Below are positions 49,517 to 50,060 of a DNA stretch of 64,000 nt, in pieces. The translations under genes and the position numbers were made by a program. Under the pieces are notes generated by a model that did no database searches, had not been told where the DNA came from, and worked only from the letters and a program-made list of their open reading frames with translations. Position 1 is the first letter of the stretch, and every line of letters starts with the position of its first letter. The stretch is from Escherichia coli (GTDB lineage Bacteria; Pseudomonadota; Gammaproteobacteria; Enterobacterales; Enterobacteriaceae). The stretch lies in assembly GCF_030384885.1 (NCBI RefSeq), contig NZ_CP128613.1, one strand, 5' to 3'.

Positions 49517-50060
49517 TATTATTGTCTCTCTGTATTCCTTCCCTACTCCTGTCTGACCCTGAAACATCACTGTTCAGAGTCGCTACCCGTCACGATAGAC
49601 CGAAATCATTAAGATTCACGGCGCGCAATGCCTGGTCTACGGTGAGAAGACCGTTGCCTGGTGGCAGCTATCGACATCACGAATGGCGTCTGTCCACGCC
49701 ATACGTAGATTTCACTAGCACGGTAAACATGGTATTTACATGCATGGTTATGCGCATATAAGAATACTGTTTTTTTTCTTCCTCGAATGTTTTCGCAAAA
49801 CACCAGGGGATTGTCAAAGCAAAACATCGATTTTTAGTACAACATGCCAGATATTCATTAACAGGGGCGTTTATTCATCATTTAATCGGCTTATAACGCG
49901 GGAAATTTAAGTAGCAGAGGTGATAATGCCGGAGGGAGTTTGACCTGCTTATCGATACTGCCGATTGCACAAATTGTTAACAAAATCGTCATACTCTTTT
50001 TTTACGTCTGTAAATTCCCTACAATCCTGCCCATTGTCTGCCAACAACTATGGGGATCTC

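Follow-up and report, generated by a model that had tools for sequence, protein, structure and literature searches.

The lrp-trxB intergenic region

The sequence analysed here, referred to as the window, is a 64,000-nucleotide stretch of Escherichia coli DNA in which lrp lies on the - strand (49022..49516, with its ATG at 49516) and trxB on the + strand (ATG at 50061), so that the divergent gap between the two genes runs from 49517 to 50060 and measures 544 bp. The equivalent gap of K-12 MG1655 (932051..932594) is also 544 bp long, and RefSeq has zero annotated features inside the lrp-trxB gap. The initial annotation had singled out this gap as unusually long, and this was borne out: its coordinates agree with ours, the length is the same in K-12, and none of the other six divergent gene gaps in the window (99, 129, 135, 149, 150 and 314 bp) is as long. 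The accompanying description of the gap as AT-rich fits the promoter-bearing half (49700-50050, 35–42% GC) but not the lrp-proximal leader (49550-49700, 50–56% GC), the gap as a whole having 43.2% GC vs 51.0% for the window.

A search with the gap sequence returned a 100% identical match in E. coli strain 2013C-4282, and of 5426 complete E. coli genomes, 5423 carry the gap at an identity of at least 95%. Relative to K-12 there are seven substitutions and two indels, six of these nine differences, at 49897-49957, sitting in or at the edge of a central spacer, and the two sequences do not differ over the lrp promoter, the two GcvB sites, the ArgR boxes or the ribosome-binding region. The locus is the one already studied in K-12 as the control region of lrp (Wang et al. 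1994; Lee & Gottesman 2016; Nguyen Le Minh/Charlier et al. 2019, PMC6640053), from which it differs by strain-level polymorphism only, mostly in the central spacer; we found in the window the position between trxB and lrp, the sequence, the promoter geometry, the ArgR boxes and the two GcvB R3-complementary GACAG sites of the K-12 region. The locus tags in NZ_CP027579.1 (1690721-1692725) pass from C6996_RS08720 (lrp) to C6996_RS08730 (trxB), and with RS08725 missing a feature may once have been called in the gap and later withdrawn. Elsewhere in the window, the annotation of the window-identical strain has ycaI (ComEC family; 15473-17737, - strand) as a pseudogene containing an internal stop.

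We fetched the lrp locus from 80 Enterobacterales species, 77 of which could be scored (upstream sequence present). All 77 have trxB next to lrp in divergent orientation, and the gap ranges from 429 to 851 bp with a median of 546 bp; with the divergent pair and at least 429 bp between its members in every one of these species, the length of the gap is not accidental. Block conservation was scored as identity to the window among 45 Enterobacteriaceae species, with third-codon-position identity (0.555 in trxB, 0.709 in lrp) as a neutral yardstick. Among these Enterobacteriaceae about 415 bp, or about three quarters of the gap, score block identities of 0.67–0.94, above the synonymous-site baseline, and only two blocks totalling 129 bp are at or below it: the poorly conserved central spacer between both control regions (49889..49956, no strand assigned; block identity 0.43) and a variable leader segment (49582..49642, - strand; 0.39 vs the baseline of 0.555). 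Nearly every conserved block is a published element, and the remaining one is the predicted trxB promoter; the gap is long because it is full of conserved elements. Across the whole order Enterobacterales, what is conserved is the long gap, the core promoter of lrp and a long leader.

The lrp promoter and its Lrp and ArgR sites

The lrp core promoter occupies 49789..49817 (- strand; block identity 0.87) and consists of a -35 TTGACA (49817 to 49812) and a -10 GAAAAC (49794 to 49789) separated by a 17-bp spacer; the motif TTGACA..TTTGCGAAAACAT was found in 77 of 77 Enterobacterales species as well as in the window and K-12. The K-12 lrp start site, reported by Wang et al. 1994 to lie at 932328, 267 nt upstream of the ATG, maps to the G at window position 49782, 6 nt past the -10 GAAAAC. 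This position fits both the -35/-10 geometry and, as an indirect cross-check, the ArgR footprint coordinates of PMC6640053, and the window has a sigma-70 promoter whose start site lies ~267 nt before the ATG. A consensus scan for promoters and terminators made its only promoter-like match in the lrp coding sequence and its only terminator-like match in trxB, and called neither kind of site on either strand of the gap; it also missed the known lrp promoter, whose -10 is weak.

The Lrp autoregulatory binding region (49802..49888, no strand assigned; block identity 0.78) corresponds to a published DNase I footprint from -106 to -20 relative to the start site, which PMC6640053 cites from Wang et al. 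1994. In EMSA, three Lrp complexes were seen on the lrp control region, and the negative autoregulation is roughly four-fold (PMC6640053). The autoregulatory Lrp sites expected from the length of the gap are accordingly borne out by this literature. The Lrp SELEX consensus gave a single match in the gap, with three mismatches (49835-49849), and its matches over the whole window barely exceeded those in shuffled sequence, so that the scan is uninformative and Lrp binding here is taken from published work, not read from the sequence.

Two 18-bp ArgR boxes lie in the leader DNA at 49718..49756 (- strand), placed there from PMC6640053 and the sequence; they read TGCGCATAACCATGCATG, TAA, ATACCATGTTTACCGTGC (49756 to 49718) and cover +27..+65 counted from 49782. 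The published ArgR DNase footprint spans +29..+65 over two 18-bp boxes 3 bp apart, the critical bases being A6, T7, A8, A9, A12 and T13 of the proximal box and T11 of the distal box (PMC6640053), and the window boxes fit all of them. A two-copy direct repeat, ATACTGTTTTTTTTCTTC / ATACTCTTTTTTTACGTC (49764-49781 and 49991-50008), is shared between the first transcribed lrp bases (opposite strand) and the T-tract of the trxB promoter, probably by chance.

The lrp leader and its small RNA sites

The 5' leader (5'UTR) of lrp extends over 266 nt (49517..49782, - strand), half of the gap, and differs from the 267 nt of K-12 because of one indel. A long lrp leader had been proposed in the initial annotation from the length of the gap, and it exists and has already been published, as the 'long lrp leader region' of PMC6640053 and the 'long 5'-untranslated leader' of PMC12152304. 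In the account of Lee & Gottesman 2016 given in PMC12152304, two GACAG sites, at -179..-175 and -39..-33, are protected by GcvB. A translational enhancer at -69..-40 in the leader, and pairing of both MicF and DsrA at the AUG and early coding sequence of lrp, are also described (PMC12152304).

Pairing of GcvB with the leader was computed anew from the annotated K-12 gcvB by an exact-complement search, which was used instead of RNAduplex because full GcvB against the leader gave unrealistic long duplexes. The distal site UGGACAGAC (49688..49696, - strand) is a perfect 9-nt complement of GcvB nt 156-164 (R3), and the proximal site CAGACAGG (49548..49555, - strand) is a perfect 8-nt complement of GcvB nt 153-160; both coincide with the published positions. 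lrp is among the most enriched GcvB partners, with 1,063 chimeras and 547-fold enrichment in MAPS (PMC9299463). Between the proximal site and the start codon, the ribosome-binding region GAGUAGGGAAGGAAUACAGAGAGACAAUAAUA (49517..49547, - strand) is nearly invariant, with a block identity of 0.94, and the last ~36 nt before the lrp ATG are invariant in 34 species bar one G-to-A (locus L016).

Leader length varies from ~165 to 550 nt across the Enterobacterales and the promoter stays fixed. The variable segment at 49582..49642 forms a species-specific hairpin and is missing from the short-leader genera (~215-nt leaders). In Xenorhabdus ehlersii the leader (L076 2065-2146 and 2323-2363) is expanded to ~550 nt and includes degenerate 15-nt tandem repeats (TAGTGTTCTGGGAAA, TGGGAGATTGTAGTA). 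For Erwinia amylovora, 5' RACE placed the lrp 5' end just 103 nt upstream of the ATG (PMC6538786). Since the distal promoter is kept in every sampled Enterobacterales species, with no Erwinia among the sampled loci, this end might have arisen by processing and not by transcription initiation.

A covariation-supported stem-loop in the leader

The window leader folds better than its shuffles (MFE -81.6 kcal/mol, z = -2.77). For a comparative structure we used RNAalifold on the leaders of 34 Enterobacteriaceae species, the whole-order leader alignment being too gappy outside this family, and obtained an extended, bulged leader stem-loop (49667..49719, - strand) with the invariant apical loop GGACAG, which we call SL-A and of which the inverted repeat I1 is the tip. 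SL-A has 20 pairs, nine of them with compensatory double changes, and 97% of the cells are paired over the 34 species; for example, one pair is C-G in 15, U-A in 10 and U-G in 7, and the next pair is U-A in 17 and C-G in 13. None of 500 column shuffles reached the observed covariation, and when the 3' partners were slid by 1–3 columns as a control, pairing fell to 22–45%. A test of the gap by covariance, as had been suggested alongside the initial annotation, thus came out positive.

A covariance model of SL-A gave a single match in the window and matched 13 further Enterobacteriaceae species or genera with shorter leaders, with E-values of ~1e-12 to 1e-22. It gave no match in Serratia, Pectobacterium, Dickeya, Proteus, Providencia, Photorhabdus, Xenorhabdus, Edwardsiella or Hafnia, and in the families without SL-A the promoter is retained together with a long leader whose sequence differs. 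The loop GGACAG is invariant in the 34 aligned species and intact in those of the further covariance-model matches whose alignments were displayed. As this invariant loop holds the distal GcvB site, the site is displayed in a hairpin loop, and the modelled structure would explain how it stays accessible. An Rfam scan of 49000-50600 with E-values up to 10 gave as its best matches bxd_3 (E = 5.9) and MAT2A_C (9.2), both far below gathering scores; the covariation-supported stem-loop presenting the distal GcvB site is new here.

Three smaller elements were seen closer to lrp. The hairpin GACUCUG/CAGGGUC (helix 5; 49555..49581, - strand), within the published enhancer region (-69..-40), is 97.5% paired, with wobble changes by which U-G, U-A and C-G alternate at one pair. 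The RNAalifold alignment also gave a small conserved hairpin (49656-49665, - strand) within 49644..49665 and, at 49644-49652 on the same strand, a conserved CU-rich element GGUCUUCUC. The latter extends well past the Enterobacteriaceae, being recognisable in Serratia (GGGUCUUCGCU), Pectobacterium (UGUCUUCUUU), Photorhabdus and Xenorhabdus (CAUCUUUUCC), and also in Dickeya, and the sequence flanking it is not conserved. A long-range helix UCUUCU:GGGAAG between the CU-rich element (49652 to 49644) and the vicinity of the ribosome-binding site was considered and is not supported: it lacks covariation because both sides are invariant, and the duplex energy relative to shuffled controls over 78 sequences had a median z of +0.45, so that composition (a CU-rich element against a GA-rich tail) suffices to explain it.

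The trxB side of the gap

The predicted trxB control region (49957..50060, + strand) comprises blocks with identities of 0.67, 0.84 and 0.86. Its putative elements are a conserved upstream block (49957-49995), a T-tract and a -10 TACAAT (50020-50025) that lies ~35 nt upstream of the trxB ATG, giving a predicted 5'UTR of ~29 nt with a GGGGA Shine-Dalgarno sequence. The block CTTTTTTTTACGTCTGTAAATTCCCTACAAT, which contains TACAAT, is conserved across the order. This promoter is predicted from sequence; a simple promoter scan did not call it, and our literature search found no paper on the E. coli trxB promoter. The block at 49957-49995 includes ATTGCACAAATTGTTAAC, which looks like a transcription-factor site. 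The predicted trxB mRNA also holds an inverted repeat in which UCCUGCCCAU of the 5'UTR (50025-50034) is complementary to AUGGGCACGA at the start codon (50061-50070, + strand); as an alternative, CCCAU could pair with AUGGGG overlapping the Shine-Dalgarno sequence. The region of this repeat is conserved, and no covariation was seen in it.

Small ORFs and other explanations for the length of the gap

The initial annotation had allowed for an unannotated small RNA or small ORF within the gap. We therefore scored every ATG, GTG or TTG ORF of at least 8 codons on both strands for its start, frame and stop in the 77 species, and found no conserved small ORF on either strand, the leader ORFs being intact in at most 28 of the 77 species. 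Some ORFs of 8–16 codons were intact in 30–39 of 77; these lie inside conserved promoter DNA, are intact only among close relatives, and were rejected. Also rejected was an N-terminal extension of Lrp from an in-frame GTG/ATG (-54/-51), as neither the T of this ATG nor the frame is conserved. The ribosome-profiling supplement of Stringer et al. has no entry at K-12 932200-932499, the part of the gap that was queried. The small ORF thus found no support in either source. The suggestion of a small RNA fared differently in its two forms: neither our consensus scan, the Term-seq data nor Rfam revealed a gene in the gap with its own promoter and its own terminator, there being no Rfam match and no second promoter, and the only candidate is a leader-derived fragment with a Term-seq end at 49680 (below).

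Three ways in which the gap might be long for other reasons were weighed against these results. Several short ORFs are present in the leader, and a uORF such as the 21-codon ORF at -186 (AUG at window 49702), whose AUG is kept in 52 of the 77 species, could in principle control lrp by leader-peptide attenuation. Only 10 of 77 species have this ORF intact, it lacks a Shine-Dalgarno sequence, and its AUG is retained because it lies within the conserved stem, as part of the 5' arm AUGGCGU that pairs with ACGCCAU; with no leader ORF beyond 28 of 77, the in-frame AUG/GTG of lrp at -51/-54 lost or frameshifted in other genera, no Stringer et al. entry in the queried interval, and neither a terminator with a U-tract nor an alternative antiterminator seen, control by a uORF is largely refuted and we regard it as very improbable. 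Even less credible is a riboswitch-like leader that senses an amino acid such as leucine. In its favour are the length and structure of the leader (z = -2.77), a covariation-supported stem within it and a position ahead of an amino-acid-responsive regulator; but no Rfam family matched even at E-values up to 10, the conserved fold is no more than an extended hairpin, the invariant loop of which already has an explanation as an sRNA site, the stem-loop was matched only in Enterobacteriaceae with the long leaders of other families differing in sequence, and here too no terminator/antiterminator alternative was seen. The leader is not a member of any Rfam family, an attenuator or a riboswitch, because we looked for the defining features of each and did not find them. 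Equally hard to credit is that the extra length is neutral filler without function: the two blocks at or below the synonymous-site baseline (49889-49956 and 49582-49642, 129 bp) could be described in this way, but the other ~415 bp are conserved above it, the gap is never shorter than 429 bp in the 77 species, and published elements cover most of the conserved blocks, so for most of the gap this explanation is refuted.

An RNA 3' end within the leader

The Term-seq tables of Adams et al. 2021 (PMC7815308) place a single RNA 3' end in the gap, at K-12 932430 (+), which lies in the lrp leader on the lrp strand, corresponds to window position 49680 (- strand) and is 165 nt upstream of the lrp ATG. 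The end belongs to their list of 3' ends upstream of ORFs and has three entries in supplementary file 1, where each tab is a growth condition; two of these entries give 9747 reads (LB, OD 0.4) and 9592 reads in a second condition (PMC7815308). For comparison, the 3' end at the lrp terminator (933176) reached 4691 and 2694 reads in these data (PMC7815308), so that the leader-internal end has two to 3.6 times the reads of the terminator end, with the reservation that Term-seq counts are not quantitative. Its Rho score of 0.84 marks it as not Rho-dependent, its intrinsic-terminator score is 7.37 (supplementary files 1 and 3), and the listed flanking sequence is ...ACGCCATTCG before and TGATGTCGAT after the end (PMC7815308). 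The name 'lrp' is absent from the main text of PMC7815308, and the lrp end, while in the list, is not among the characterised cases of 5'UTR-derived RNAs in that work. The end is left unexplained by any published model of the region.

Position 49680 falls 3 nt past the upper 7-bp helix of SL-A, inside the 3' arm of the longer stem, and an RNA from the lrp start site to this point would be ~103 nt long and end in the hairpin displaying the GcvB site. Following the hairpin there is no U-tract, AUUCGUGAUG being found instead, and hence no canonical intrinsic terminator or Hfq-binding 3' module; the fold of the ~103-nt fragment is unremarkable (z = -1.9). Of the features expected of a sponge or 5'UTR-derived RNA, we found a discrete, reproducible 3' end, and not a terminator-like stem with a U-tail. 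A processing or trimming intermediate is the simplest reading of this end.

It is also conceivable that the leader yields a stable ~103-nt RNA, either acting in trans as a GcvB decoy or sponge, or being the product of premature termination or processing that sets read-through into lrp. The high read counts relative to the lrp terminator, the end being not Rho-dependent and its intrinsic-terminator score would all fit such an RNA, as would a terminal hairpin whose loop and flanks make up the perfect 9-nt complement of GcvB nt 156-164 and whose loop does not vary among the 34 Enterobacteriaceae species aligned. R3 is likewise a target of the known GcvB sponge SroC, lrp is highly enriched among GcvB partners (1,063 chimeras, 547-fold in MAPS; PMC9299463), and the role of the distal GcvB site is described as unexplained (PMC12152304). 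Against this, the hairpin is followed by AUUCGUGAUG and not by a U-tract, the position of the end within the 3' arm of a longer conserved stem is more like that of a decay or trimming intermediate, the read counts are not quantitative, the fold is unremarkable, and our literature search found no paper proposing an lrp-leader-derived sRNA or sponge or claiming such a fragment. SroC derives from a transcript that is itself a GcvB target, pairs with GcvB at sites that include R3, and has been demonstrated as a stable, Hfq-bound product of gltIJKL mRNA processing (PMC4474525); the lrp fragment resembles it in its perfect 9-nt R3 complement, but it is known from a Term-seq 3' end alone, is 5'UTR-derived and is without a U-tail. 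We therefore consider a functional fragment, whether a sponge or a mark of regulated premature 3'-end formation, unlikely, and it is the only reading of the region with some novelty.

A probable compound control region for lrp

We put at roughly 90% the probability that the gap combines the already-studied compound control region of lrp and, back-to-back with it, an ordinary trxB promoter. The architecture of the lrp control region is already known from the literature, its footprints, sRNA sites and leader having all been published. Read from trxB toward lrp, the gap would begin with ~100 bp of conserved trxB promoter and short 5'UTR, followed by ~70 bp of unconstrained spacer and then by an extended region of ~87 bp at which Lrp binds and represses its own sigma-70 promoter. 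Next come this TTGACA-17-GAAAAC promoter, invariant across the Enterobacterales, and the 266-nt transcribed leader. On the early transcribed DNA, ArgR binds and modulates the autoregulation of lrp, as published, and the leader RNA serves as a structured platform on which GcvB (at two sites), MicF and DsrA repress translation, again as published. One GcvB site is presented in the loop of the conserved stem-loop and the other just upstream of the ribosome-binding site. The gap is not long through hiding another gene; it is probably long because lrp, a global regulator, is controlled both at transcription, by Lrp and ArgR, and at translation through its structured leader.

The rpoS leader is another long 5'UTR of a global regulator and a target of several Hfq-dependent sRNAs. 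The long structured leader of lrp is like it in integrating several sRNAs (GcvB, MicF and DsrA), and unlike it in that the sRNAs of lrp repress and that the two leaders have no homology in sequence or structure.

To the published picture this analysis adds small increments, namely the order-wide conservation, the structure of SL-A and a pointer to an abundant, undiscussed 3' end inside the leader. How the level of Lrp is set matters because a large part of the E. coli genome is under Lrp control. If the ~103-nt fragment were real as a regulator, it could titrate GcvB as SroC does, or mark a regulated step of premature termination or processing, and either would explain the distal GcvB site; a functional fragment would then be an extra feedback element in the known GcvB–Lrp double-negative loop.
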